Part shown: in pieces, positions 217 through 63,905 of the stretch | How the letters are laid out: each line of letters starts with the position of its first letter | How positions within the stretch are numbered: position 1 is the first letter of the stretch | Source: an uncultured Chloroflexia bacterium | GTDB taxonomy: Bacteria > Chloroflexota > Dehalococcoidia > Dehalococcoidales > RBG-16-60-22 | Direction: 5' to 3' | Assembly: GCA_963739515.1 (NCBI GenBank) | Contig: CAVUAO010000003.1 | Coordinates: 748,170-812,169, forward strand | DNA length: 64,000 nt | Notes under the pieces: model-generated | The model's input: the letters and a program-made list of their open reading frames with translations, nothing else | Told to the model about the DNA's origin: nothing | Database searches by the model: none | Translations under genes and position numbers: made by a program

Positions 217-1249
217 TCAAGGCACTTCGAGGAGGACCTTGATATTGGCTTCTTTATCGGTCAGCAGCGCCTCGAAGCCCAGTGCCACGGCTTTTTCCAG
301 AGGCACGCGAGAAGTTATCAGCGGAGTCGGGTCGATTTTCTTCTTTGCCAGAAGGTCGATAGCCTGACGGCCTTCGTCGATATAGATGGAGCTGCCCACC
401 ATCGTCCTTTCGGTAAAGGTCAGGGAGCTGAAGTCTATCACGCCGGGCCGGTCAAAGACGCCGACGAGGACAATCGTCCCGGCGCGGCGGGTCAGCCCTA
501 CGGTAAGCTGGGGGGTCTCCGGGTTGCCGACGCATTCAAAAGCGAAGTCGGCACCCGGGCCGTTCGTCAATTCCTGCAGGCGCCGGGCGGGGTCGGAACC
601 GTCGAGATAGATAACGTCGGTAGCGCCGAGTCGGCGGGCAAGCTCGCCGCGGCCTTGATGTTTGGAGACGAGATAGATTGCCCCGGCGCCCGCCGCCTTA
701 GCGGCCATGAGGACGCACAGCCCGATGGCGCCGTCGCCAAGAATAGCTACCGATATCGCCAGCCCGTACTTTGCCCTGCCGGACGGCGTGAAGTCCCACG
801 GCCAGAGGCTCGACGAGGGCGCCGGCTTCATCGGAAACGCTTTCCGGCAGGTGATAAACAGCGTAAGCCGGAATAACAAAATACTCCGCCAGGCAGCCGT
901 CGGTGAGGAGGCCGGTAAAGCCCTGGTTGACGCAGATATTATAGAGACCCTTTTTACAGCAGTAGCACTCGCCGCAGTACCAGTAGCCCACCCCGCTGAC
1001 CCTGTCCCCGACTGTAAAGTCCTTTACCCCTTTTCCCACCTCCGCCACGTTCCCCACGAACTCGTGCCCCAGCGTCAGGGGGACTTTAGCCGGGGGAATC
1101 ATCACGGGGCCCTTGGCGTATTCCTTGAGGTCCGTGCCGCAGATGCCGGCCAGGGAGACTTTAATCTTAAGCTGGCCGGGACCGGGCGAAGGCTCCGGGA
1201 CATCAACGTAACGCAGGTCTTTACGGGCGTACCAGCGCAGGGCTTTCAC
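217..1249 (-). pseudogene. zinc-dependent alcohol/butanediol-type dehydrogenase (MDR family) with one frameshift
   Basis: ORF 698..1249 has the catalytic-Zn (GHEFVG) and structural-Zn (CGECYCCKKG) motifs. ORF 217..879 has the Rossmann part (AILGDGAIGL). The frames join as ...VRAGDI/VAILGDGAIGL if one G is removed near 750-756. Confidence 0.8.
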
Positions 1250-1296
1250 AGAGGTAATTATTCAGAAGAGCCAGGAGATTGTCAAGAAGGAGCGAC

Positions 1297-26431: not shown

Positions 26432-27902
26432 ATGCAAAAAACCCCTGACATGACGGACACAAGCCGGGTGCGCAACGTCCTCGATACCGACCGCGTCGGG
26501 TCGTTGCTGGTAAAGCTGGCGACGCCCGCGTTCTTTGGAATGTTCGTGCAGACTCTTTACAACGTGGTAAATACCATCTTCATCGGCCATGCCGTCGATA
26601 AACTCGGCAATCCCATCGGCATGCCGGCCATCGCCGCTCTTTCCATTATTTTCCCTATCCAGATGATATTCATGGGCGTCGGCATGATGGTCGGCATGGG
26701 CGGGCACCTCGCTCATTTCCAGGTCCATCGGTTCGGGCGAACATGCCAAAGCGGAACGCACTCTGGGCAACGGCATAACCTGCATTACCATATTAGCGCT
26801 GGTAATAACCGCCGTCATCCTGCCTAATATCAATGGTTTCCTCAGGCTTATCGGCGCCTCGGAAGAGGTCCTCCCTTACGCCCGGGAATACCTGAGAATC
26901 ATCGTCAGCGCCACGGTCTTTAACCTCATCGGCATGGCCCTGCTGAACTTCGTCCGGGCCGAAGGCAACGCCCGCGTGGGCATGATTGCCAATATCATCG
27001 GGGCCGGACTGAATATTGTACTGGACTCTATTTTCATCTTCTGGCTCAAGATGGGCGTCACCGGTGCCGCCCTGGGCACGGTCATCGCGCAGATAACGGC
27101 GTTGATATACCTGAGCTCCTATTATCTTTCCGGGAGCAGCTACCTGAAGTTCCGCCGGGCCAATCTCCGGCTCGATGCCGCTATCCTGAAACCGATGTTT
27201 TCCATCGGCGCCTCGTCCTTCGTGCAGACGGTGGCCGGCAGCTTTTCCGCCATGTTCCTGATTAAAGAAGTGGTCAATCACGGCGGCGATGTTTACCTGT
27301 CCGCCTTCGGCATCATCCAGCGGGTGATGATGTTCGCCACGATGCCGGCCATGGTCACCGGCCAGGGCGTGCAGCCCATCATCGGGTTTAACTATGGCGC
27401 CAGGCGCTTTTCGCTCGCCCTGAAAGCTTTAAAAATAGCGACGATTGCCTCCTCGCTGATGAGCCTGGCATCGTTCGCCATACTCTATTCTATCCCGGGG
27501 CCGATCATCAAGATTTTCAACAGCGACCCTCAACTGGTGGCGGCCGGCATACGCGCTTCCCACCTGGTCTTCTGGAGCATGCCCCTGATGGGTCTGGTAA
27601 TGGTCGGCGCCACCTCTTTCATGTCGATAGGCAAGGCGGTGCAGGCGTTTATCCTGGCGGTCGCCAGGCCGGTCCTGTTCCTGATTCCGGCGGTGGCGGT
27701 GCTGCCGCACCTGCTGGGACTGAACGGCGTCTTTCTCTCCTTCCCCACCTCCGACGCCTTTACCCTCATCCTGACGGCGCTGCTTATCATCCCCGTCATA
27801 CGGCAGTTCCGCAAGGCGACCGCCGATGAGAAAGGAAAACCGGCCGGGGCGTTCAGTCCGCAGGGGCTGCTGGATACCGCCGAGGAAGGTCAGCGCCAAT
27901 AA
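26432..27902 (+). pseudogene. MATE-family efflux transporter with one frameshift
   Basis: ORFs 26432..26827 and 26934..27902. Removing one G from the GGG run at 26702-26704 restores GMGGTSLISRSIGSGEHAKAERTLGNGI..., which matches the paralogue's GLGGASLISRMLGRG. Confidence 0.8.
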
Positions 27903-36186: not shown

Positions 36187-38130
36187 TTATTTCTCTTTAT
36201 AGACGCCGGCGTAGTCTTTATTACGGGCTTCGTACTCTTTTTTCATGTCGCCCCAGAAAGCCAGCGGTAAATCCCCGGTCTTGACCTTGCCGTTTTCCAG
36301 TTTAATCGTCAGGAACTTGCGCCACTCCGGCGGGTCGAGGGTGGGGTAATCTATCCGGCGGAAATTCAGCGGCACGCTGCTGGCTTTCCGCGCCAGCATC
36401 GCCTGGATAATGATCTGGGCGTAGGTTAACAGGCTCGTGTCTTCCAGGCTGCGCATGAGCTTATGCGGGTCCAGCGCGAATAGCTGGGGCACCGATTCCT
36501 TTTCGATTTTACTGAGTGTACCAAGACCCATGTTAAGCAGCGATTCGGTCTTGAACTCGCTGACATAATATTGCATTGCCCGGGCGATGCCGGCGTGCAG
36601 CTCTTTCCACTCCATGCCGTCAGTCCGCTTGACCGGGGCATAGACGCGGGCTTTCTCACGGTCGATTTGTTCGCGGGAGACTTTAGACGGGCCGACCTGC
36701 CGGGCATACGCCGCCGCTTTACGGCCGGCATACCTGCCCGTGGACGCGGCATGGCTATGGTCTTCCGGACAGAACATCTGCATCCCGGCGGCATACAGTC
36801 CGTCGAGGGTGGTCTTCAGGTCCCAATCGACCACCACGCCGCCGCTGGCCTCGCCCCACTGCGGCAGGCTGTTTCCCTCAATGAACTTATAGCTCTGGAG
36901 CAGGTCGCGGCTTTCATCGTAACCGGCTTTATTTAAAGTATCCATGATGATTTTCGTCGTGGACTCTTCTCCGAGCATCAGTTTCCAGGTCGCCCTTCTT
37001 TCGACATCGGGCATTCCCGGGAAATCGCCATAGAAAGGCAGCGCATATTCGCCGCTGAGGATACCCTTGCGGATAGCCTCCTCGACCTGGGGCGAGGGCA
37101 CCATGGCACCGGCGTCTTCCCAGCCCTGTATCGGGTAGGGCAACCTCTTACCGTTGGCATCGACGAGGGGGACGTTTTCGTAGCTGGCGTCGCCCGCCCC
37201 GGAATACCACTTGTGCTTGAGTCCGGTGGCGATGCGCAGGACGCCGGTGCTTTCCATCATGGTCAGCGCCGCCCCGGCTCGCCAGGCCATCACCGAACCG
37301 TCGCCGGTAGTGGTGCGGGACATCATATTGGAATAGCCGCCCAGCTCCATGCTCATCAGCCATATCGACCCGGCCCCGGCGGTGGCAATAATGGCGGCTT
37401 TAGATTTAAAGATTATGAACTCGCCGGTGCGGTTGTTCACGCCGGTAGCCCCGACGACCCGCCCACCCTGGACTCCGTTCTCGGTCAGGAGACTGGTACC
37501 CATCACGCGGTCGAAGATTTTGACCCCCAGGCGCTTGCATTCCTTTTTCAGAGCGGGCTTAAAGGTGCTCCCCCAGACCCTTATCACCACGTTGTTCAGT
37601 TTGCCTTCCGGATTGCTTTTAAAAAAGACCGGCTTCATCATGTTGGGGACATAGCTGTGCACTTTGGTATAGCGCGGGGATATCATGAACTTGGTCTTAT
37701 CATCCCGGCCCTCGGCGCCGATATATTCGTCTTTGGTGTCCCTGATTTTGCCGCCCATCTGCTCCATTTCGAGCAGGGTATCGTAATCCTCCCGGCACTG
37801 TATCTGGAGGCCGATGCCGTTGCAGTAGGGGCGGTCGGCCATGTGCTGCGCCCACTCGTCTGGAGATACGTTGGATAGAGGATTAGCGGGGACATCGCAC
37901 CAGTGGTCGCACCCCGGACCTCCGGCGCCGCTCCTGACGGTATCGCCCTTTTCCACGAGCGCCACGCTTAAGCCCTGCCTGGCGGCGTTGATCGCCGCCC
38001 AGCATCCTGCTATACCGCCGCCAATCACCAGGACATCCACATCGATTTCCTGCTCCCGGTCGTAGCGTACGGGATACGGCCAGTCCGGCGCATGGCCCTC
38101 TTCTTTCAGGTAATCATGCCAGGTGCTCAT
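36187..38130 (-). CDS. FAD-dependent oxidoreductase, fumarate-reductase/AprA-like flavoprotein
   Basis: 647 aa with the dinucleotide fold VLVIGGGIAGCWAAINAA. Length and C-terminal capping region are AprA-like. No sat/qmo/dsr genes nearby, so not called APS reductase. Confidence 0.7.
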   Translation of the reverse strand: MSTWHDYLKEEGHAPDWPYPVRYDREQEIDVDVLVIGGGIAGCWAAINAARQGLSVALVEKGDTVRSGAGGPGCDHWCDVPANPLSNVSPDEWAQHMADRPYCNGIGLQIQCREDYDTLLEMEQMGGKIRDTKDEYIGAEGRDDKTKFMISPRYTKVHSYVPNMMKPVFFKSNPEGKLNNVVIRVWGSTFKPALKKECKRLGVKIFDRVMGTSLLTENGVQGGRVVGATGVNNRTGEFIIFKSKAAIIATAGAGSIWLMSMELGGYSNMMSRTTTGDGSVMAWRAGAALTMMESTGVLRIATGLKHKWYSGAGDASYENVPLVDANGKRLPYPIQGWEDAGAMVPSPQVEEAIRKGILSGEYALPFYGDFPGMPDVERRATWKLMLGEESTTKIIMDTLNKAGYDESRDLLQSYKFIEGNSLPQWGEASGGVVVDWDLKTTLDGLYAAGMQMFCPEDHSHAASTGRYAGRKAAAYARQVGPSKVSREQIDREKARVYAPVKRTDGMEWKELHAGIARAMQYYVSEFKTESLLNMGLGTLSKIEKESVPQLFALDPHKLMRSLEDTSLLTYAQIIIQAMLARKASSVPLNFRRIDYPTLDPPEWRKFLTIKLENGKVKTGDLPLAFWGDMKKEYEARNKDYAGVYKEK

Positions 38131-45175: not shown

Positions 45176-46869
45176 TTAAGCGGGTTTAATCTTATACTTA
45201 CCTACCGGGACCGGTTGTGTCGTAAGTTTCATCTTGCCATTATCCTGTTTTATGATTATCCACTTAAGCCAATTCTTATCGTCAGGTGCCGGAAAATCTT
45301 CGCGGAAATGGAACCCCCGACTTTCCTCTCTCATTAAGGCTGCCCTGTATGTTAACTCGGCGCATAAAACCATGCTCTTAACTTCATGGCATTTACTGAG
45401 GTAATGGGGATCCTTTGCCTTTAAACCTGATATTTTCTCCTTTAAATCATCAAGCCTTACCAAAGCTTCATTCAAGCGTTCTTTACTTCGGCGAAGATTA
45501 TACTTCATTGGAGCCATAACATCTTGTAATACCAATATTGCATCCCCCGGTAAGAAATTCTTGCCTTTATGTAGTGGGGCGAAAATATTATCTTTCAAAG
45601 TCTTTATTTCGGTATAACTAATACCACTGAAAGACGAATCTTCAATATCACGGGAAGCTGAAGGGCCAGCCCACCCTGCACTAATAACCGCAAACATGAT
45701 CCCCGATCCGGTGTTATACCGGGAGGTGAAGCCACAGCTCCAGCCACTGCTGAACCTGCATAACTGGTATCGCCAATAGCCCATAATCCCTTAAGGCTGG
45801 TCTTCATTTCATGGTCTACTTTAATACATGAGGTTTCACCATGTAACGGCACGCCTATCTCCCGCCTGACATTCGGCGGAAACCCGTATTTTATTTCTTT
45901 TTCAGCCATGTGCCGTTGCCAGTCATTCAATTTGGGTAAGTCAGTATGCACTACATACGGGGGATTTGAAGGCGGTGGGGCAAAATATATTGGCCCTCTC
46001 CCCTCGGCAACTTCTTTTTCTAAACCAACGGCTAATTCCACAGGCAAAAACACACCCGTTGGGCCTTCACCGGGCAAATATTTCTTAGATAAATTTTCAC
46101 CGAGCGCATTAACAAGGAATTGATGGCCTACCATACCACTATCTGTATCCTGCCATACAGTATGACCGTAGAGATTGCCATATTCGACATTTCTCATCTC
46201 TGCCCCGGCACGATAAGCTGCGGCAATTCCATCGCCGGTACCGGCAATCCAGAACCTTCTCACTTTATAACCGCAACTGCCATTTGCTAATACAGTTGCT
46301 TTAGCTCTAAAGATGTAAAATTTGCCGGTAATAATATCAAAACCGACTGCGCCAATGACTTTATTTGATTTTGTTAATAAATCAACAACATGTATTTTAT
46401 TTAAGAACTTTGTACCCATTTTACGGGCTTTACTCTTGATAGGTAGCATCAAATCAATATCAATATAGGTCGTTGACCACTCAGGAGCCCAGAATGCGGG
46501 AGTGATGATTAGCTGGCCGTCCGGGGTCTTAGCCAGGTTTGAGCCCCACTCATCAAATTCCTCAATTGCTTTATACGAACGCGCGACATATTTAGCAAGT
46601 AACTCCTGGTCGTTTAAATAGAACCCGGATGTACGTACCTGAAAGTCCATAAACTTGTCCGGGTTATTCCCAGGCCCCAGAAATGCCAGAATCCCGCCGA
46701 TTTTGGTTGCTTTGCCCGCCCAGCCAGCGGTCTGTTTTTCAACGACTAAAACATCAGCGTCTGGGTTTTTTTCTTTTGCTTTCACGGCTGTGACCAGACC
46801 GCCGATACCGCCGCCGATAATCAATACATCGGAAGAAATCACTTCACCTAAATCTTCTGTATTAGCCAT
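45176..46869 (-). pseudogene. FAD-dependent oxidoreductase (fumarate-reductase/AprA-like flavoprotein) with one frameshift
   Basis: ORFs 45604..46869 (VLIIGGGIGGLVTAVKA) and 45176..45784 (LMREESRGFHFREDFP). The frames join as ...ASPPGITPGSGIMFAVISAGW... if one nt is added near 45706-45712. Confidence 0.75.
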
Positions 46870-47168: not shown

Positions 47169-47828
47169 TTATTTAACGTAAATAATCTTGGAACCCTGTT
47201 TTATTATTTTCAGGGAAGCTTGGCGGTTAATGGTCGGGTCTGAGACCGCCTGCCATATTCCCCAGAGCGTCGGCAGGAAAGCTTTGAATGTGCTCACTTC
47301 AGCAATGTTATGGGTGCGCCAGCCGCCTCCTGTCGGTTTCTTCCCGCTGGGGTGCGGCGGCATCAGACCGGCTGGTGCGCCTCCGGGAGGTCCTCCCGGG
47401 ATACCATGCATGCAGGAACGCATCTTGCATCCGCCGGGGATTGGTTCCCACTGGTGAGAAAGCACGACATGGGATTTATTTCCGGACTGGGGGTCGGTTG
47501 GCCCTGCGGCGGTAAGAAGGTGTTCATATGTCCAGAACTTTTTTTGTTCCTCCGTCCCCAGATTAGGATCGACCCATTCGATACGAATAGGCATGACCGG
47601 GCCATAATCGATACTTTCGGTGGCAATCTGGACGGCTCCGATATGCCCACCCAAAGGCGGCTTAATCTTCCATCTAAAACCCTTGTGCTCGTCGGGACAC
47701 CATAACTCATAGCCTTTTTCCATGTTGACCCACCACCAATCGAGCATTTCGGCGGTCACTCCGGGAATTACATGGTCGACAACTATCCATGCTGCCGGAA
47801 ACTTTTCTTCTTGCATCTTAGATATCAT
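47169..47828 (-). CDS. PhlG / phloretin-hydrolase-like C-C bond hydrolase (DAPG-hydrolase domain), short form
   Basis: 219 aa. PGVTAEMLDWWWVNM...LWCPDEH matches my recollection of PhlG/Phy (MPGVTxEMFDWWFAWH...IWDPEDH). C-terminal HNIAE matches the HxxxE Zn-ligand pair. ATG 47816 is an alternative start. Confidence 0.5.
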   Translation of the reverse strand: MISKMQEEKFPAAWIVVDHVIPGVTAEMLDWWWVNMEKGYELWCPDEHKGFRWKIKPPLGGHIGAVQIATESIDYGPVMPIRIEWVDPNLGTEEQKKFWTYEHLLTAAGPTDPQSGNKSHVVLSHQWEPIPGGCKMRSCMHGIPGGPPGGAPAGLMPPHPSGKKPTGGGWRTHNIAEVSTFKAFLPTLWGIWQAVSDPTINRQASLKIIKQGSKIIYVK

Positions 47829-55541: not shown

Positions 55542-56762
55542 TTATGGAATAACGCCTTTTTCCTTAAAGTGTTCCATGTCCTCCCAGGAATAGCCATATT
55601 CCAGCAGCACTTCCTCGGTATGTTCCCCGATCTGTGGGGCTACGTGCGTGATTTTAGCGGGTGTATCGCTGAACTGGACGGGGCTGTTCAACAGCCGCGC
55701 TTTCCCTACCAAAGGATGCTCGATGTCCGTGAAGAAATTATTTACGATAGCTTGCTCATCCCTTAGGATTTCCGGTATTGTCTGGTTGCCGCTGACTATC
55801 AGGTCGTTTGCCTTGAATTCCTTCTCCCATTCCGGCCAGGTACGGGTAACGAAGAGTTTATCCAGTTCCTTAATCATCGCTTCGGCGTTTTGCTCGCGGC
55901 TTTCCATAGTAGCATAGCGCACGTCATTTATCCATTCCAGCTTGCCGATTGCTTTGCAGAATGGCTCCCAGTAGTCCTGGTTGGGATGGACCATCATCAT
56001 CCATTTGCCGTCTTTGGCTTTATAGGAGTTGTACATCGGGTTCGGGTTACACCTTCGGTCCCATATCTTTGGCGGGTACCCGTACAGGCAGACCTGCGTA
56101 TCCAGGCCCAGTGTCCATGTCGCTACGTGGTACAGGGATACTTCCAGCCCCTGCCCCTTGCCCGTCTTTTGTTTGTGGTATAAAGCCGCCAGTATCCCGC
56201 TGGTAATATGGGCGGATGTTACCATGTCCATCATGCCCGGGCGCTGTATAGCAGGGGGACTCGTCGGGTCTGCTGTTACCAGGCTCATCAGCCCGCCGTA
56301 CGACCAGGCCGCGATATAATCGTAACCCCGGTCTCTCGCTTTCGGGCCTTTTGTACCGAACCCGGTAAGCAGGCAGTGTACCAGCCCCGGGTACCTGTCC
56401 TTCAGGCTGGCATAGTCCAGCCCGAAACGCTCCAGTACGTCGATGGAGTAGTTGGTGGCAAAAACGTCGGCGTCCTTGAGGAGCCGGTGAATTATTGCCC
56501 TGCCCTCTTCTGTCCGTAGGTTTATGGCCACGCTTCTCTTGCTGCGGTTTAAGAATTCGAAGTGAAGCTCGATTTGTCCTTTATCCAGATTGAGCAGAAG
56601 CGGCGTCCTATTAAAGCTGACCAGGCTTCTCTGCCAGTCCCCCCATATCGGCTCGATCTTGATGACATCGGCGCCCCAGTCCGCCATAACGGCTGTAGCC
56701 GCCGGCACGCCGACAACTTGCTCAAACCCGATAATTTTTAATCCATCTAGTAGTCCAGCCAT
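55542..56762 (-). CDS. family III (CaiB/BaiF) CoA-transferase
   Basis: 406 aa. LDGLKIIGFEQVVGVPAATAVMADWGADVIKIE. Confidence 0.85.
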   Translation of the reverse strand: MAGLLDGLKIIGFEQVVGVPAATAVMADWGADVIKIEPIWGDWQRSLVSFNRTPLLLNLDKGQIELHFEFLNRSKRSVAINLRTEEGRAIIHRLLKDADVFATNYSIDVLERFGLDYASLKDRYPGLVHCLLTGFGTKGPKARDRGYDYIAAWSYGGLMSLVTADPTSPPAIQRPGMMDMVTSAHITSGILAALYHKQKTGKGQGLEVSLYHVATWTLGLDTQVCLYGYPPKIWDRRCNPNPMYNSYKAKDGKWMMMVHPNQDYWEPFCKAIGKLEWINDVRYATMESREQNAEAMIKELDKLFVTRTWPEWEKEFKANDLIVSGNQTIPEILRDEQAIVNNFFTDIEHPLVGKARLLNSPVQFSDTPAKITHVAPQIGEHTEEVLLEYGYSWEDMEHFKEKGVIP

Positions 56763-56927
56763 ATTTTTTCATTCCTTTAGAATAATCTCTCGGGGATACC
56801 CATATTGACAGACGGGCATCCAGAAATCTCTGAAAAGCAGACAAGCGAACGGATTCATCAATCTATTCTCACATTTTTGCGAGCATGTTAAGGGACTCTA
56901 TTTCAAGCCCGAGGGAAACCCGAAACA

Positions 56928-56981
56928 AGAGCCGCTATCTGCTGATGACAAATCGGCTGTCCTGCCGGATATAGCGGCTCT
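56928..56981 (-). terminator. long-loop hairpin downstream of cupin gene (possible terminator)
   Basis: Perfect 11-bp arms agagccgctat (56928-56938) and atagcggctct (56971-56981). On the minus strand it is followed by tgtttcgggttt. Confidence 0.4.
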
Positions 56982-57030
56982 TTATCACGGTGCGATGAGT
57001 CGTTCCCGGGCTGCCCCAGGCAGGTCCGCT

Positions 57031-57372
57031 TTAGTCGTAACTTATAGCTACCAGCATGGTTACTGGTTTATTGGTTTTATTGATAATTTCCCTTCCCTCG
57101 TTAGGAGCCAGGAAAAGCAGGTCCATGGGTTTCAGGGTAAATTCATCCTTCTTGGTCTTAACGGTGAGTTCTCCGTCCAGTACGACGTATACTTTTTCCG
57201 TAGGTGAGTCTTCGTAAGCATATTTTGCCCCGCCGCCGGGCAGGAAATAGGAAAGCCCCACCCAGAACTTTTTAGCGCCCGTTTCATCCTTGCCGCTCAG
57301 CCTGAGGGCAGTCACATCGAAGTGGCCCGGCGCGGCATACGGTTTAACCTGGTTCAGACTAATTTTTTTCAT
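57031..57372 (-). CDS. cupin-domain protein
   Basis: 113 aa. Single small beta-barrel pattern (VYVVLDGELTV...LLFLAPNEGREIIN). Confidence 0.65.
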   Translation of the reverse strand: MKKISLNQVKPYAAPGHFDVTALRLSGKDETGAKKFWVGLSYFLPGGGAKYAYEDSPTEKVYVVLDGELTVKTKKDEFTLKPMDLLFLAPNEGREIINKTNKPVTMLVAISYD

Positions 57373-57418
57373 AGCTCCCCCTATATATTACGAATCATAA
57401 CTAATATTGATAGTTATT

Positions 57419-58225
57419 TTATTGTGTGCCGTACTTGTAGACCCGGTCTGGGACACGGTTGATATTTTCTTCATCAATGAAGGCGACCATGCGGACGATA
57501 GAGCCGTCGCCCATATACCAGCGAATAGGAAAGCCGGATATCTTACACCGCTTGCCCACAACTTTGGCGATATCGCCGCCGACATTCTCCCAGCCTAGGA
57601 GGCCGTTTCTCATAAGCAGGTTATGGCACGGCTCCCATTCCGGGAAATCTTGGAGCACATCGTGACCTGTCAGCTGCTTGTACTCTTCGCAAACATCTTT
57701 TCTCAGGGGTCCCGGGCCATGAGGGCCGATGGCGGTATGCAGCGGGTGGTCCAGTGCCTGCTGGTCCACGCCGACAGCTTTAGCTTTGTGGGAAACGAAC
57801 CATTCCCCGGCCTCTTTGCCCAGGCCGGGTGAGTAGCAGAAATAGGTGGTGTTATCGCCCCAGTATTTATTCCAGCCGGTATGGACAATAATGATATCGC
57901 CGGCTTTCATCGGCAGCTTCTTGTTGGCGGCGTCGAGGTCCTTGGCGGTAATAAGTTCCCATTTCTTCTTGGGAATATCCCAGACGACGGCATCGCCATA
58001 ATAGCAGGTCAGGGGAATTTCATGGGTAAAACGTCCTCCCTCGAAGACATGGGCCGGCGAATCGGCATGAGTTGTACAATGCATTACGGTGGTTACCGTC
58101 TGAGAAAGCACGCCGGATTTAGCCATATAATGCATTCTCTCAATCTTAACATCCGCAAAATACGGCCAGAGCGGTGAACCGTTACCGAATGGATGGCTTA
58201 AATCAACCAGTATTTCTTTTCCCAT
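57419..58225 (-). CDS. cyclase-family (kynurenine-formamidase-like) metal hydrolase
   Basis: 268 aa. Motif HCTTHADSPAH equals HxGTHxDxPxH with G replaced by T. Confidence 0.8.
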   Translation of the reverse strand: MGKEILVDLSHPFGNGSPLWPYFADVKIERMHYMAKSGVLSQTVTTVMHCTTHADSPAHVFEGGRFTHEIPLTCYYGDAVVWDIPKKKWELITAKDLDAANKKLPMKAGDIIIVHTGWNKYWGDNTTYFCYSPGLGKEAGEWFVSHKAKAVGVDQQALDHPLHTAIGPHGPGPLRKDVCEEYKQLTGHDVLQDFPEWEPCHNLLMRNGLLGWENVGGDIAKVVGKRCKISGFPIRWYMGDGSIVRMVAFIDEENINRVPDRVYKYGTQ

Positions 58226-58264
58226 AATGGATACCTCCTTGAATTATTACTATCAAGTATTGTA

Positions 58265-59035
58265 TTAGCAGGTAGTCACGCCGCCGTCGATATAGAGTAT
58301 TTGTCCGGTGATAAAATTGGAAGCTGCTGACGCAAAAAATATGGTAGCCCCGACGATGTCCTCCGGTAGAGCCCAGCGGCCCATGGGGATGCGGCTCTTC
58401 ATATACTTGGCATAATCCGGATTAAGCAAAGCCTCAGGAGTCAGTGTCAAAGGGGTCTCCACAATAGTGGGGGCCACCGCATTTACCAGCACGTTATGTT
58501 TCGCCCACTCGCAGGCGAGCGTACGCGTCAGGGTGTCCACCGCTCCCTTGCTGGCACAGTAGGCGGCATAGTTAGCTGGCAGGCCATATCTGCCCCGCAC
58601 CGACGAAAGGTTGATAATCCGGCCGCTTTTTTGCTTAATCATGACCCGGCCCACTGCCTGGCAACACAGGAACGTCCCGCGGGTATTGATATCCATCACC
58701 TGTTGCCATTCGTCAATGGGGAAAGTTTCGGCAGGTTTGCGAATAGATATCCCATGAGCATTTACCAGGATATCGATGTGAGAAAATTTTTTCATGACGG
58801 TGTCTACCATGGCTGCCACGGATTTTTCTTGAGAGACATCAACGGCGACCGCCAGGGACTTCCTCCCTTTGCCCTGTATTTCTTTAACTACCGGCTCGAG
58901 GTGCTCCAATTTCCGACTGGTTATAATAACATCCGCGCCAGCATCGGCTAAACCCAGAGCTTGAGCATGTCCAATGCCACCCCCGCCACCGGCCACGACC
59001 GCCACTTTACCCGTAAGATCAAATAAATTAGTCAT
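58265..59035 (-). CDS. SDR-family oxidoreductase (candidate phloroglucinol-reductase-like)
   Basis: 256 aa. Has VAGGGGGIG, an NAHG variant and YCASK. The substrate is inferred only from gene context. Confidence 0.8.
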   Translation of the reverse strand: MTNLFDLTGKVAVVAGGGGGIGHAQALGLADAGADVIITSRKLEHLEPVVKEIQGKGRKSLAVAVDVSQEKSVAAMVDTVMKKFSHIDILVNAHGISIRKPAETFPIDEWQQVMDINTRGTFLCCQAVGRVMIKQKSGRIINLSSVRGRYGLPANYAAYCASKGAVDTLTRTLACEWAKHNVLVNAVAPTIVETPLTLTPEALLNPDYAKYMKSRIPMGRWALPEDIVGATIFFASAASNFITGQILYIDGGVTTC

Positions 59036-59928: not shown

Positions 59929-62526
59929 CTACTTCCATTTTTCTATTTCGACCAGGCATGAGTTTGGAGCCATGCCGCAGGCATTTTTGGAAATGAAGCG
60001 ATGATTGGTCAGCAGGTTAATGCATCCGCCCTTATCCGGCTGATTCACCGGGCTTGCCGATAGGCTCATAGATGGCGCAGGACTCATAGGAATGAACGAC
60101 TCCCGGCGGCACGCGTCCGGTGACCTGGGCGGCCAGTAACACTTCACCCCGGTCATTAAAGGCTTTGACGATGTCGCCTTCTTTAATACCCCTCTTTTTG
60201 GCGTCGTCCGGGTTGATACGGATCACCCAGTAATAATACCCGTCCGCCATCTTGACCCTGTGTTCCGGTATCTCGTTCACCCAACATTCCTTGCCATCAT
60301 ACATGGTATGGAAGCTGTAAGCTGGGATGGGGTGAAATTAGTTGCAGCGGATATTTTGTATACAAGCTCCGTGGTATGATGCCCTTCCCATGAAGGGATA
60401 TATTTGGTGACGGGCGGTCTCTCCTTGATCGTTGGGGTCAAAGCGCTTGAGACTCTGCGATTCAAATTCAATTTTGCCCGATCTGGGTATCGACGTGACC
60501 TACGGCATCAGGCAAGTCCCTGGGTAGCGCCGCCGACAGGGCCCCAGTCGATGTCATCCTTTTTCCTGTTTTCGGCAAACCATCTGAGGGCCGGGGTTGG
60601 TTTATAGTTTTTCGGCAGCGGTACGACGAAGTAGCCCTTCTTCTCGAATTCTTCCCAGGAAATATATTTCGGCAGGTCGCTGGCTTGAACACGCTCTTTA
60701 CCCAGTCCAGTTCGTTCAGTGCCGCCTTCGGTGAATTTCTCGTAGAACCCGAGTCTCTTGGCGACCATGGCGAATATCTCATAGTCAGACTTGGACTCAC
60801 CGAGCGGCTCGATGCATTTCTTCTGGAAGACGATCATCCGGCGGTTGCACCCGTAAGACGAATGGGGGATATAGCCTGAGCAGTTGGCCCACTCGCCGAT
60901 GTCCCACCTCTCGAAGTTGGAGCAGGCGGGCAGTATCAGGTCGGCGAATTTAGCTTCACCTTCCAGGTAAATAGACTGGTTGACGACAAATTCCAGCTTG
61001 GGGCTCTGGTACATCTTAACCCAGCGGTTGGTATTGTTCATGGTGCCGATATAGGCCCCGCCATAACGCCAGAACATCTTCAGATCTGAGAATACCCGTC
61101 TTCAGGGTATTTATATTTCTTGAACTGGGTCTCGGTGGAATCGCCGCAGAAGCCCTTGCCCCGCCATTCCTGGGGTGGGTCCATGATGCATTCCGGCACC
61201 AGGATCCTGGGTATATGCTGCCCGCCGGGATTGTTCAACGTTGAACTCGTCGGGTGGGCGGTGATGCCGCGAGGTATCAACTGGTAAGCGGCAGCAGTGT
61301 TGGCAGGATCGCCGGATATACCGCCTTCAGCGTATCCCGGGAAAAAGAAATCGCCATTGTAGGGGGCGCCGCCGGTGGTCGACCAGATGTTGCTGCCCGG
61401 TTTGCCCAACCCCTGCATGGCGGCCAGCAGCACCATCATCCTCGCCCATTCCGTGCCGTAGGCGGTGCGGCAGGCGCCTCCCCACCCTCCGAGCCCCCCG
61501 GCTGCCAGCATGGTCTTCTTTTTGCCCCATTCCCTGGCCAGGGCTCTAATTTCACGGGCCGGTATCCGCGATTCCTTCTCGCGCCCATTCCGGAGTCTTG
61601 GGAATGCCGTCATCCTTGCCCAAAATATAATCGCACCATTTATCAAAGCCATAGGTATGCGTCTTGACATATTCTTTATCGTAGAGGTTTTCGGTTAGCC
61701 AGACATAAGCGATAGCAGCGGCGAAAGCCGTATCGGTACCCGGCCTGGGAGCGAACCATTTATCGGAGTAGTTGATGGCGGTGAAGTTGAAGAAGGGGTC
61801 GATAAAGACCATTTTAATTCCCAGTTCTTTCAGCCAGAAACGCCTTATCGCCGATTCCTGTCCGGCGTAGATGCCGCTGGTGGTTGAAGGGTCGCTCGAC
61901 CAGTAGACGATCATCTCGGTGTGTTTCAGCGCATCATCCAGGAGGTCGTACTGTCCGGGTATGCCGAGCCTCCAGGAAAAACCCCAGTTATGCATGGCGC
62001 CCCAGTGCCAGCCTTCCCAGCTGTCCGGGTTATGGTCGGCATAGGTGTAGCCCAGGATATTCATAAACCTGAAATAGGTACTGTGACGATAACCGACATT
62101 GCCCCAGTTGTGGTGAGAATCCGTCGTGCTCAACATTGCGCCGGGACCGTAAGTTGTACGTACTCGAATTATTTCATCACAGAGGATATCCAGGGCTTTT
62201 TCCCAACTTATCTCCTTGTAGCCCGATTTGCCCCTGTTCGCCTGCTTCCTGTCTCCCTTGAGACTGAAGTCTTCTCTTAAAAGGGGATGAAGAATACGGC
62301 TGGTGCCATATATCCTCGACCTTTCCGCCAGGGCGTATGAGGAGACCCTCGCCCTGTTTTCCGGAGAGAATTTCTTGCCGCGCGCCTCGATGACCCAGGT
62401 TGCGTCATCTTTGTCGAGTTCCAGTGGCTCGATGCGTGTTATCCTCCCCTCCTTCACATAAACATTGACCGGCCCTCCTGTAGTGCAGCTGGTAAGGACC
62501 TGCTCGTATTTTTTCGTATTTATCAT
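59929..62526 (-). pseudogene. molybdopterin subunit, pyrogallol-phloroglucinol transhydroxylase large-subunit (AthL)-like, about eight frame disruptions
   Basis: Pieces are 61552..62526, 61080..61670, 60508..61077, 60468..60800 (tail), 60277..60471, 60032..60304 and 59929..60156. Diagnostic strings include HHNWGNVGYRHSTYFRFMNILGYTYADHNPDSWEGWHWG, AAGGLGGWGGACR, LPACSNFERWDI and GGCINLLT...LVEIEKW. No Tat signal. Own retranslation places the shifts near 61580, 61081, 60515, 60478, 60420, 60355, 60320 and 60037. Confidence 0.85.
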
Positions 62527-62822: not shown

Positions 62823-63905
62823 CTACAGTTTAAAACCTGGTGGCAATGGCGTGAAACGCATATCGCCAAAGTCATATTTCGGCGTCATGGCGATAACTAC
62901 CATCAGGAAAGGCCTGTCAACCCTCTTGAAATAATGTGGATTATGTGCCAGGCCCGCCGGCACCCACTCAGCCGTCGCTTTGGTGGTGACGAATTTCTCT
63001 GCCTCGTTTCCCTCACCCAGCCAGAACTCGACTTCTCCGCCTAGATTCAGCGTGTCGTGCGGGTCAAGCCCGACGAAAAGGAAAAGTTCATCGAAGTTGT
63101 GCGCATGGCCACCTCCTTCGGTGCCCTCTGCCGCACCACCCTTGAGGATAGTTGGCTCCAGGGAGGGGAGTCCTATTCCGGTTCCCGCGGCATATACATG
63201 GAAAATTTCAACCCAGATGGTAGCGTCAGGATAAGTGGTCTTATCGAACATCAGTGTCGGTACGGCTACCATGCCGCGTTGATAAGGAAATAAACGGTCC
63301 GTGGCAAATTTCACTTCATTAACATATTTCGTGTATAGCCCTTTACCCTTTTGCTCCTGCCCCACTTTTTCAAAGGAAAAGGCCGGCGGAAGCGGAATCG
63401 AGCGAGAAGCGCCGGGATCGAGGCTGTACGTAGGTGTCATGGCAATAGCCATTTCAATGATAGGTCTATCGCGGCTAGCGACCTTGGTAAAATAATGCGG
63501 ATTATGTGCCACGTTCCGCGGGACCCATTCGGCCGTCGGTGTTTTAGCGATAAATTTCTGCGCATCTTTTCCTTCGCCCAGCCAGAACTCGACCTCACCC
63601 CCTAGAGATAAGACATCATGCGGATTACTCCCGAAAAACAAAAAGAGTTCGTCGAAGTCGGGGTGCGCGTGCTGTCCGCCGTCGCCCGGCATCTCTCTAC
63701 CTTCGATTATCATCGGCAATTCGCCAGGGATCATAACTCCGGACCCTGGCGCGTAGATATGGAACGTTTCGACCCAGATTTTGGCCCCCGGGAAGACTTT
63801 TTGGTCGAAAATCAGCGAAAAATCCGCAATCTTGCCCCGGTAGGCTGGGCGTATCAACTCCGTCCATAGCCTTAAGTCGTGAACATATTTTGTATATTTT
63901 CCCAT
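62823..63905 (-). CDS. bicupin protein (internally duplicated cupin), unknown function
   Basis: 360 aa. The halves share HAHP(N)FDELFLF.G..PHD.L.LGGEVEFWLGEG...TAEWVP...AHNPHYF. AAGGAGGG SD present. Confidence 0.6.
   Translation of the reverse strand: MGKYTKYVHDLRLWTELIRPAYRGKIADFSLIFDQKVFPGAKIWVETFHIYAPGSGVMIPGELPMIIEGREMPGDGGQHAHPDFDELFLFFGSNPHDVLSLGGEVEFWLGEGKDAQKFIAKTPTAEWVPRNVAHNPHYFTKVASRDRPIIEMAIAMTPTYSLDPGASRSIPLPPAFSFEKVGQEQKGKGLYTKYVNEVKFATDRLFPYQRGMVAVPTLMFDKTTYPDATIWVEIFHVYAAGTGIGLPSLEPTILKGGAAEGTEGGGHAHNFDELFLFVGLDPHDTLNLGGEVEFWLGEGNEAEKFVTTKATAEWVPAGLAHNPHYFKRVDRPFLMVVIAMTPKYDFGDMRFTPLPPGFKL

Follow-up and report, generated by a model that had tools for sequence, protein, structure and literature searches.

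A gene that stands in an otherwise intact operon and cannot be translated in a single frame may be decaying, or its sequence may be wrong. The large-subunit (alpha) gene of a putative transhydroxylase, located near the end of the 64,000-nucleotide stretch of DNA analyzed here (the window), raises this question because its coding sequence is spread over three frames. We sought to establish what the gene encodes, where exactly its frame changes lie, and whether the changes resemble those of a pseudogene or those of a faulty consensus.

Identity of the interrupted gene and its operon

Read from position 62526 to position 59929, the alpha gene spans 2598 nt and falls into open reading frame fragments of 324, 196, 189, 110, 64, 90 and 75 aa. 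The first 324 aa match the large subunit of pyrogallol hydroxytransferase (4v4c_A, E=4.5e-125). When the indels are removed, the corrected protein aligns end to end with this subunit, residues 11-861 corresponding to residues 7-867 of 4v4c_A (1161 bits, E=0), and the runner-up PDB matches, which are DMSO/TMAO reductases, reach ~248 bits. Six positions of 4v4c, His144, Arg153, Asp174, Ser175, Tyr404 and Tyr560, were inspected, which we take to be active-site or substrate-binding residues together with the serine that ligates Mo; the list reportedly goes back to Messerschmidt et al. 2004. All six are identical in the corrected alpha subunit according to the 4v4c_A alignment (motifs SHHNWGNVGYRH, NPDSWEGW, FPGYAEGG and NCSGYIP). 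A search with the full-length corrected query returned 4462 family proteins at E<=1e-100. The homology to 4v4c_A and the alignments to orthologues described below confirm what a preliminary description of this DNA had proposed, namely a transhydroxylase-like alpha gene with frame changes. As judged by homology, the gene is the large-subunit orthologue of a pyrogallol-phloroglucinol transhydroxylase of the DMSO-reductase family, with predicted activity on pyrogallol.

As in the solved enzyme 4V4C, a beta subunit with a 4Fe-4S dicluster and a C-terminal Ig-like domain is encoded next to alpha. The two systems differ in their hosts, which are Dehalococcoidia-like here and a deltaproteobacterium there. 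They also differ in that the alpha DNA as written has ten frame changes where an uninterrupted frame of ~860 aa would stand. We judge this interruption to be a fault of the sequence and not of the gene.

The beta gene lies directly after alpha and contains no frame-breaking indel relative to loci L001 and L005. The operon genes that follow beta (55542..59035, minus strand) are unbroken, as is a 360-aa gene upstream of alpha. Phloroglucinol reductase and dihydrophloroglucinol cyclohydrolase are part of the known anaerobic pathway (PMC10470551), and the operon likewise goes on with short-chain dehydrogenase/reductase (SDR) and cyclase-family genes, which by analogy with that pathway may fill these two roles. 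The predicted operon for pyrogallol/phloroglucinol breakdown is thus intact in a Dehalococcoidia-like genome. The earlier statement that the neighbors of alpha are intact holds for the operon (beta, SDR, cyclase, cupin, CoA-transferase and the 360-aa gene) and does not extend to the whole window, in which an alcohol dehydrogenase (ADH) gene, a MatE transporter gene and a flavoprotein gene are also frameshifted (Table 1).

Table 1. Genes and frame changes in the window. Bracketed bases stand side by side in the sequence and can be read as alternatives at one codon position.
Feature	Coordinates	Strand	Remarks
Transhydroxylase large subunit (alpha, AthL-like, Mo-bisPGD)	59929..62526	-	three frames as written; 862 aa with indels removed
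Event 1, +1	61581..61582	-	Ala codon GC[G][C], then GAG AAG GAA as in L019
Event 2, +2	61087..61089	-	Ser codon TC[T][C][A]; all three bases found at this column among orthologues
Event 3, +1	60720..60721	-	GG[C][A] (Gly) or, equally, [A][C]TG (Met/Leu, both in orthologues)
Event 4, -1	60684..60685	-	third base of Asn codon absent (AAC/AAT in orthologues)
Event 5, +1	60513..60514	-	Leu codon CT[T][G]
Event 6, +1	60482..60483	-	Gln codon CA[G][A]; both alleles among orthologues
Event 7, +1	60427..60428	-	Asp codon GA[T][C]; both alleles among orthologues
Event 8, +1	60365..60372	-	Leu [C][T]TG at 60365-66 or Thr AC[C][A] at ~60372; placement ambiguous within 8 nt
Event 9, +1	60326..60327	-	His codon CA[T][C]; both alleles among orthologues
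Event 10, +1	60037..60041	-	Ser TC[A][G] (60040-41) or Ala GC[C][G] (60037-38)
Beta subunit, intact, 283 aa	59073..59924	-	Fer4_11 (E=1e-29), 4Fe-4S dicluster; C-terminal CarbopepD_reg_2/CarboxypepD_reg, Ig-like
SDR, phloroglucinol-reductase-like, intact	58265-59035	-	downstream operon gene
Cyclase family, dihydrophloroglucinol-cyclohydrolase-like, intact	57419-58225	-	downstream operon gene
Cupin, intact	57031-57372	-	downstream operon gene
Family III CoA-transferase, intact	55542-56762	-	downstream operon gene
ADH frameshift, +1 near 754-757	747..787	-	zinc alcohol dehydrogenase gene ~217-1290; stitched protein has full ADH_N and ADH_zinc_N
MatE frameshift, +1	26704..26705	+	transporter gene 26432-27902; Gly codon GG[G][C]; first MatE domain of stitched protein spans junction
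Flavoprotein frameshift, -1	45709..45710	-	fumarate-reductase-like gene 45176-46869; third base of Pro CCN apparently absent

Ten indels in the alpha gene

Indels were called by nucleotide alignment of the alpha gene to the intact 862-aa orthologues L001, L002 and L003, which come from related Dehalococcoidia MAGs, and then to 11 orthologues. We observed ten events, comprising eight +1 insertions, one +2 insertion and one -1 deletion. Together they add up to +9 nt (2598 vs 2589), a multiple of three, as had been noticed before. The preliminary description had counted about eight frame changes, seven of them single-nucleotide insertions, and had overlooked a +1/-1 pair (60720 and 60685) in which the shift caused by event 3 is undone by event 4 35 nt further on. 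The frame path, given as coordinate modulo 3, is 0>2>0>2>0>2>1>0>2>1>0; the path traced earlier is the same overall and lacks the 35-nt excursion between these two sites. Several other observations in that description are borne out by the alignments. Five events are tightly clustered, lying within 190 nt (60326-60514), and the junction near 61081, which had been read as either a 1-nt deletion or a 2-nt insertion, is a 2-nt insertion (61087-61089). No large deletion is seen in the orthologue alignments, similarity is high on either side of each junction, and the reported bias towards insertions is evident in the ratio of nine insertions to one deletion.

The ten events lie mostly outside homopolymer runs of >=3 bases. 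Homopolymer slippage is therefore ruled out as the main cause, and a homopolymer-prone platform, which had been put forward as one source of error, is not the best explanation. Each of the nine insertions is compatible with two (once three) synonymous alleles standing next to each other at a single degenerate codon position. The deletion takes out a third base. For eight of the nine insertions, both bases are present at the corresponding column among the 11 orthologues. At random, an insertion would form a synonymous doublet with a probability of 0.42 and match orthologue alleles with a probability of 0.35, which gives p values of ~1e-3 and ~2e-4, respectively, both approximate because gap placement leaves some freedom. 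Orthologue variation serves here as a proxy for read alleles.

Selective constraint on the corrected frame

The corrected alpha gene contains 0 internal stops, and its product shares 92% aa identity with that of the nearest orthologue, L001. At 397 columns that are invariant in 12 orthologues, the corrected alpha carries 1 private change, compared with 1-3 in intact close relatives, and across the close set (650 columns) it carries 8, compared with 3-9 in L001, L002, L003 and L013. The dN/dS ratio is 0.05-0.07 for the corrected alpha vs 0.03-0.05 among the same four relatives, and dN is slightly elevated on the window branch (0.041-0.050 vs 0.025-0.040). Of random substitutions in the alpha coding sequence, 74% are expected to be nonsynonymous and 4.6% to be nonsense. 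Given this spectrum and the small number of private changes, at most ~14 neutral substitutions could have accumulated alongside the ten indels. Thus, by dN/dS, nonsense mutations and changes at conserved positions, the corrected alpha does not show the relaxed selection of a decaying pseudogene.

Clustering of events and other frameshifts in the window

The 2.6-kb alpha gene holds ten events, while the other 61.4 kb of the window hold at least three; at the background rate, ~0.13 would be expected in alpha. The local enrichment of indels in alpha is real. The same kind of error does occur elsewhere in the assembly, in the ADH, MatE and flavoprotein genes, whose stitched proteins regain full domains, and two of these three frameshifts have the same third-position pattern as the events in alpha. 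We also searched for a second alpha copy that could have been the source of collapsed reads and found none within the 64-kb window. Sliding-window identity along alpha gave no clear pattern of a mosaic of nearest neighbors.

Orthologues in other assemblies

The comparison with orthologues that the preliminary description had proposed was carried out on loci from two collections. One open frame is present in 79 of 80 JGI metagenome loci and in 11 of 12 testable GTDB loci, or 90 of 92 together. The exception examined is the GTDB locus L012. It is a Microflora Danica MAG, and these data are Nanopore-only, assembled with Flye and given one round of Medaka. In L012, the alpha gene contains 8 insertions and a single deletion, and further +1 insertions are found in its beta, SDR, cyclase and CoA-transferase genes; 10 of 12 insertions in L012 are of the doublet type. 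Two further loci with a broken alpha gene, L094 and L095, lie on long Flye-style contigs, each with a second alpha paralogue nearby, and L094 is broken throughout. Short-read assemblies thus have intact orthologues, and it is the long-read-only ones in which they are broken.

A near-identical intact copy from the same population was not found in GTDB representative genomes, in JGI metagenome contigs, or in protein searches with the N-terminal fragment and the full corrected query. The best relatives of the corrected alpha have 91-92% aa and 88% nt identity, which is too distant for a base-by-base test of the indel sites. Exact look-ups with the proteins of three window genes gave no match to a source contig. 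The protein search with the N-terminal fragment returned only matches of <=560 aa, which might suggest widespread truncation of orthologues. We rejected this idea because the full-length query returned thousands of proteins of ~860 aa, so that the short matches are mostly an effect of query length. Among the short matches, however, some that lie on very long contigs are genuinely broken.

Origin of the frame changes

From these comparisons, it is very probable that alpha is a normal orthologue that was functional until very recently, and that its ten indels arose as consensus errors when long metagenome reads were assembled, and are absent from the DNA of the organism. We favor this reading because the corrected frame shows neither stops nor relaxed constraint, because the insertions lie at synonymous variable sites, because unrelated genes of the window contain similar lone frameshifts, and because the same pattern is present in a Nanopore-only MAG while the orthologue is intact in short-read assemblies. 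The preliminary description, on account of the insertion bias, had preferred an artefact over recent pseudogenisation, and this preference is supported by the evidence just listed. The platform used for the window would presumably have been of the Nanopore or PacBio type.

The likely cause is that reads of two close haplotypes or paralogues were polished together. Reads from at least two very similar haplotypes, either co-occurring strains or a near-identical paralogue, would pile up on alpha during consensus building or polishing, where an error model in which indels are cheaper than substitutions would act on near-balanced SNP sites. At some of these sites both alleles would be kept side by side, producing +1 and once +2, and at one site a base would be dropped, producing -1. 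The location of the events at synonymous variable sites suggests mixed haplotypes and not classical homopolymer error. The events resemble the frameshift errors known from long-read-only metagenomes, which are the subject of IDEEL checks and proovframe-type correction, in that small indels truncate a conserved gene and have no counterpart in short-read assemblies of orthologues; such errors are also seen in L012 and in Flye-style contigs. They differ from these errors in being clustered in one gene, biased towards insertions and located outside homopolymers. The strong clustering counts against an artefact insofar as it requires the extra assumption that mixed reads were present at alpha only.

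The clustering could have another cause within an artefact if coverage was locally low and random long-read consensus noise from one haplotype was left in place. The sporadic single frameshifts elsewhere in the window and other Flye-style contigs that are broken throughout, such as L094, are compatible with such noise, and soil Nanopore assemblies have been reported to contain more frameshift errors (PMC13087279). However, random noise gives no reason for the insertions to fall without exception on degenerate positions and match orthologue alleles, or for a density 50-80x higher to be confined to one gene with clean genes adjacent to it, and we regard it as rather unlikely. Programmed recoding, in which ribosomal frameshifting or transcriptional slippage would restore the protein, is practically inconceivable: although alpha starts and ends in frame 0 and the shifts sum to a multiple of three, such a sum would come about by chance in one case out of three, ten separate shifts without a common slippery motif would be needed, and no shift is conserved in any of the 90 open-frame orthologues.

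It is improbable that alpha is a genuine, very recent pseudogene that acquired small insertions in vivo, for example through an indel-prone replication or repair defect, before the rest of the operon began to decay. In favor of this reading, the indels are present in the given sequence, the window branch has a slightly higher dN, the other frameshifted genes of the window could also be pseudogenes, and L012, an independent lineage, has a broken copy too. Alpha also resembles decaying bacterial pseudogenes in that its reading frame is interrupted within an otherwise intact operon. It differs from them in lacking nonsense mutations, a raised substitution load, a deletion bias and larger deletions, and there are essentially no neutral substitutions beside the ten indels (no stop, and a single private change at the invariant columns). 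In bacteria, indels that arise spontaneously are ~10x rarer than substitutions, biased towards deletions and concentrated in homopolymers, a spectrum that does not fit a gene in which 9 of 10 events are insertions located mostly outside runs. Moreover, a mutational process would have no reason to aim at synonymous variable positions, and the broken relatives examined, L012, L094 and L095, are all of the long-read style, against one open frame in 90 of 92 loci. Very improbable as well is that the insertions are real both in the window and in L012 and stem from a hitherto unknown process of mutation or gene silencing that is specific for insertions and acts on the operon. If that were true, two separate Dehalococcoidia lineages would carry alpha genes riddled with +1 insertions at degenerate positions and otherwise unmutated.

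Consequences for annotation

With consensus error as the preferred reading, the organism is predicted most likely to have a working transhydroxylase. Annotation of alpha as a pseudogene would wrongly delete the first reaction from a pathway that is otherwise complete in a Dehalococcoidia genome and serves the breakdown of pyrogallol/phloroglucinol, phenols derived from tannins. The finding is an ordinary one, in that the ten-fold interruption looks like an assembly error and not like real gene decay, and its biological import is small; its value lies in quality control. The error leaves a recognizable signature, consisting of extra bases at synonymous variable sites, alleles standing side by side, and a bias towards insertions outside homopolymers, by which mixed-haplotype consensus errors could be told from true gene decay without reads. 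This signature recurs in the same gene family in public Nanopore-only MAGs.

Two minor observations concern the sequence around individual events. A GATC arises through two of the alpha insertions, and another two events are found 1 nt away from such a motif. A link to methylation-motif error was considered and set aside, as it is post hoc, unproven and absent in L012, and as transition doublets beside TC or GA account for most of it. In L012, the Pro codon adjoining the site of event 2 has a +1 insertion of its own, CC[G][T].

Indels in the alpha gene

A single minus-strand gene lies in 59929-62526, where it is broken into ORF fragments of 324, 196, 189, 110, 64, 90 and 75 aa that are spread over three frames, and its N-terminal 324 aa match the pyrogallol-phloroglucinol transhydroxylase large subunit (PDB 4V4C chain A) with E=4.5e-125. 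A scan of GTDB representative genomes yielded 13 related loci, the nearest of which belong to uncultured Dehalococcoidaceae MAGs and show 94-90% identity across the N-terminal 317 aa. The preliminary description had proposed a comparison with orthologues; when this was carried out, ~862 aa were found in one open frame at 11 of the 12 testable GTDB loci. Synteny with these MAGs extends from 55.4 to 63.9 kb (~8.5 kb), where nucleotide identity is 82-85%, and conservation within the syntenic locus is highest in the alpha gene, with 88% nucleotide identity to L001, an orthologous locus in a Dehalococcoidia MAG.

Indels were called by MAFFT nucleotide alignment against L001 and two other such loci (L002 and L003), and later against 11 orthologues. 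We observed ten indel events with a net change of +9 nt, so that the first and last segments are in a common frame. The alignments confirm the multiple frame changes that had been noted in this gene, together with a net shift that is a multiple of three and a tight cluster of five events, all of them within 190 nt. The frame path traced in the preliminary description was reproduced exactly, except that it had missed a 35-nt excursion between the +1 at 60720 and the -1 at 60685. Nine of the ten events are insertions, and the majority are not in homopolymer runs. As had been described, the immediate neighbours are unbroken: the beta subunit, SDR, cyclase-family protein, cupin, family III CoA-transferase and upstream 360-aa protein carry no frame-breaking indel relative to orthologues.

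When the extra bases are deleted and the one missing base is filled in, the frame encodes an 862-aa protein that has no internal stops, is 92% identical to that of L001 and aligns end to end with 4v4c_A (1161 bits). In the same alignment His144, Arg153, Asp174, Ser175, Tyr404 and Tyr560 of 4v4c_A, which we take to be its Mo ligand and substrate contacts, are all kept. In sequence-based tests the gene behaves as a transhydroxylase-family member in every respect but its open reading frame, a failure that we attribute to the assembly.

Indels of the alpha gene, frameshifts in other genes and further features of the window
Feature	Position	Strand	Detail
Alpha gene, +1	61581-82	-	Ala GC[G][C]
Alpha gene, +2	61087-89	-	Ser TC[T][C][A]
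Alpha gene, +1	60720-21	-	Gly GG[C][A]
Alpha gene, -1	60685/84	-	Asn codon without third base; AAC or AAT in relatives
Alpha gene, +1	60513-14	-	Leu CT[T][G]
Alpha gene, +1	60482-83	-	Gln CA[G][A]
Alpha gene, +1	60427-28	-	Asp GA[T][C]
Alpha gene, +1	60365-72	-	Leu [C][T]TG
Alpha gene, +1	60326-27	-	His CA[T][C]
Alpha gene, +1	60037-41	-	Ser TC[A][G]
Zinc alcohol dehydrogenase	217-1290	-	One frameshift, ~755
MatE transporter	26432-27902	+	Frameshift 26704-05, GG[G][C]
Fumarate-reductase-like flavoprotein	45176-46869	-	45709/10, Pro codon without third base
Intact flavoprotein paralogue	36187-38130		
GATC at or near indels	60427-60430, 60480-60483, 61083-61086, 45705-45708		
360-aa protein	62823-63905	-	No Pfam match
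DAPG-hydrolase (PhlG)-like gene	47169-47828	-	In low-GC segment

Putative allele doublets

When the events are set in the codon frame of the orthologues, each insertion can be read as a pair of adjacent, differing bases that occupy a single degenerate position (three bases for the +2 event), that is, as a doublet of synonymous alleles. Both inserted-site bases are present at the same column among the 11 orthologues in eight of the nine insertions. Among simulated random insertions, 42% give a synonymous doublet by chance and 35% match an orthologue allele of an adjoining column, so that all-hit outcomes have p ~1e-3 and ~2e-4, respectively, values that are approximate because there is some freedom in gap placement. 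Two inserted bases create GATC, and at two other indel sites this motif is 1 nt away. Such proximity could hint at motif-linked basecalling errors, a post hoc reading of a pattern absent in L012, a broken GTDB locus.

Frameshifts elsewhere in the window and in independent assemblies

A census combining Pfam annotation of all long ORFs with three-frame inspection, and covering ORFs with a Pfam match, revealed at least three further single frameshifts in the 64-kb window, each in an unrelated gene. Two-frame stitching regains full domains, which span or flank the junction, in the alcohol dehydrogenase and the MatE transporter; in the flavoprotein it only unites the FAD-binding and C-terminal domains in one polypeptide, as is likewise seen in the intact paralogue. 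These three scattered frameshifts indicate an assembly with sporadic indels at ~1 per 20 kb, whereas the density in the alpha gene is ~1 per 260 nt.

A single open frame spans the whole match at 79 of 80 related loci on JGI metagenome contigs; L080:3001-4965 alone has a stop codon in the matched stretch. L012, the sole broken GTDB locus, comes from the Microflora Danica MAG set, which was built from Nanopore reads only with Flye assembly and one Medaka polishing round (PMC12313526). Its alpha gene contains eight +1 insertions and one deletion, and more +1 insertions are found in its beta, SDR, cyclase and CoA-transferase genes; 10 of 12 insertions are doublets of the kind seen in the window. 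The error-dense stretch (L012:6000-12900) begins at alpha and extends through these four genes. The L012 cyclase gene also has odd 12-20-nt insertions, and the upstream 360-aa gene is without an indel. Fragmented alpha genes also occur on L094 (245 kb) and L095 (1.14 Mb), contigs with Flye-style names that each carry a second alpha paralogue a few kb away. L094:2557-8505 has both alpha copies in pieces, along with several neighbours (SDR, BKACE, permease), and in L095:1-8605 one copy, split into 405 + 467 aa, adjoins an intact 866-aa copy. Frameshift errors are known from published long-read metagenomics and are reported to be commoner in soil Nanopore data (PMC13087279).

Origin of the indels

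Constraint on the alpha gene looks normal. Of 854 aligned columns, 397 show no variation among 12 orthologues; the window deviates at 1 of these and intact close relatives at 1-3. At 650 columns invariant in the close set there are 8 private changes in the window, 9 in L001, 9 in L002 and 6 in L003. Pairwise dN/dS is 0.05-0.07 for the window versus 0.03-0.05 among the four closest intact relatives (L001, L002, L003 and L013). Random substitutions in the alpha CDS change an amino acid in 74% of cases and create a stop in 4.6%; given these expectations and the observed changes, at most ~14 neutral substitutions accompany the ten indels. Spontaneous indels in bacteria are about one order of magnitude rarer than substitutions and favour deletions and homopolymer runs. 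Normal pseudogene decay does not fit so few neutral substitutions per ten indels or a spectrum dominated by insertions mostly outside runs.

The ten indels very probably arose as consensus errors in the assembly of a long-read metagenome. The preliminary description had leaned towards an artefact, and this is supported by the normal constraint, the insertion bias, the doublets, the frameshifts elsewhere and the broken, Nanopore-only L012. Because the events are clustered and can be read as doublets, they suggest that two haplotypes were polished together, and mixed haplotypes are the somewhat favoured cause if the indels are indeed artefactual. Reads of two close haplotypes, derived from strains or a near-identical paralogue, would have been polished together over the well-conserved alpha gene. 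Under an error model that penalises indels less than substitutions, we infer that both alleles would be kept at a balanced SNP as the best fit to both read groups. A real, very recent inactivation is improbable, and it retains a small probability because no near-identical intact alpha copy was found in GTDB representative genomes, a full-length protein search or JGI metagenome contigs. Programmed recoding is in practice excluded. The frame of the alpha gene needs correction before any pathway inference, and allele doublets at synonymous sites provide a clue to mixed-haplotype consensus errors when reads are not at hand.

Operon and wider locus

The operon runs from alpha through beta, SDR, cyclase-family protein and cupin to CoA-transferase, and it agrees with the known anaerobic pathway from pyrogallol through phloroglucinol and dihydrophloroglucinol to 3-hydroxy-5-oxohexanoate (PMC10470551), in which the SDR and cyclase-family protein have putative roles assigned by family membership. 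Directly 5' of alpha, the 360-aa protein consists of two similar halves, an internal duplication, with the motifs HAH...DELFLF...GGEVEFWLGEG, and it is conserved in L001, L002, L012 and two further orthologous loci (L006 and L007).

GATC is 4.4-fold depleted in the window (64 sites versus 279 +/- 15 expected from shuffles), and its density is uneven, 0.57 per kb in 1-44 kb as against 3.3 per kb in 60-64 kb. At ~44 kb the GC content drops from ~0.56-0.58 to ~0.44-0.45, and the compositionally distinct last 20 kb, which include the transhydroxylase operon, may represent either an acquired island or a chimeric join. Besides the PhlG-like gene, the 44-55 kb region holds a SnoaL-like protein, two SDRs, a nitroreductase and a MarR regulator, a gene set that may serve further phloroglucinol-related metabolism. 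The same region contains two adjoining proteins (286 and 295 aa) that lack a Pfam match, and three gaps of 0.7-0.9 kb that are nearly devoid of ORFs.
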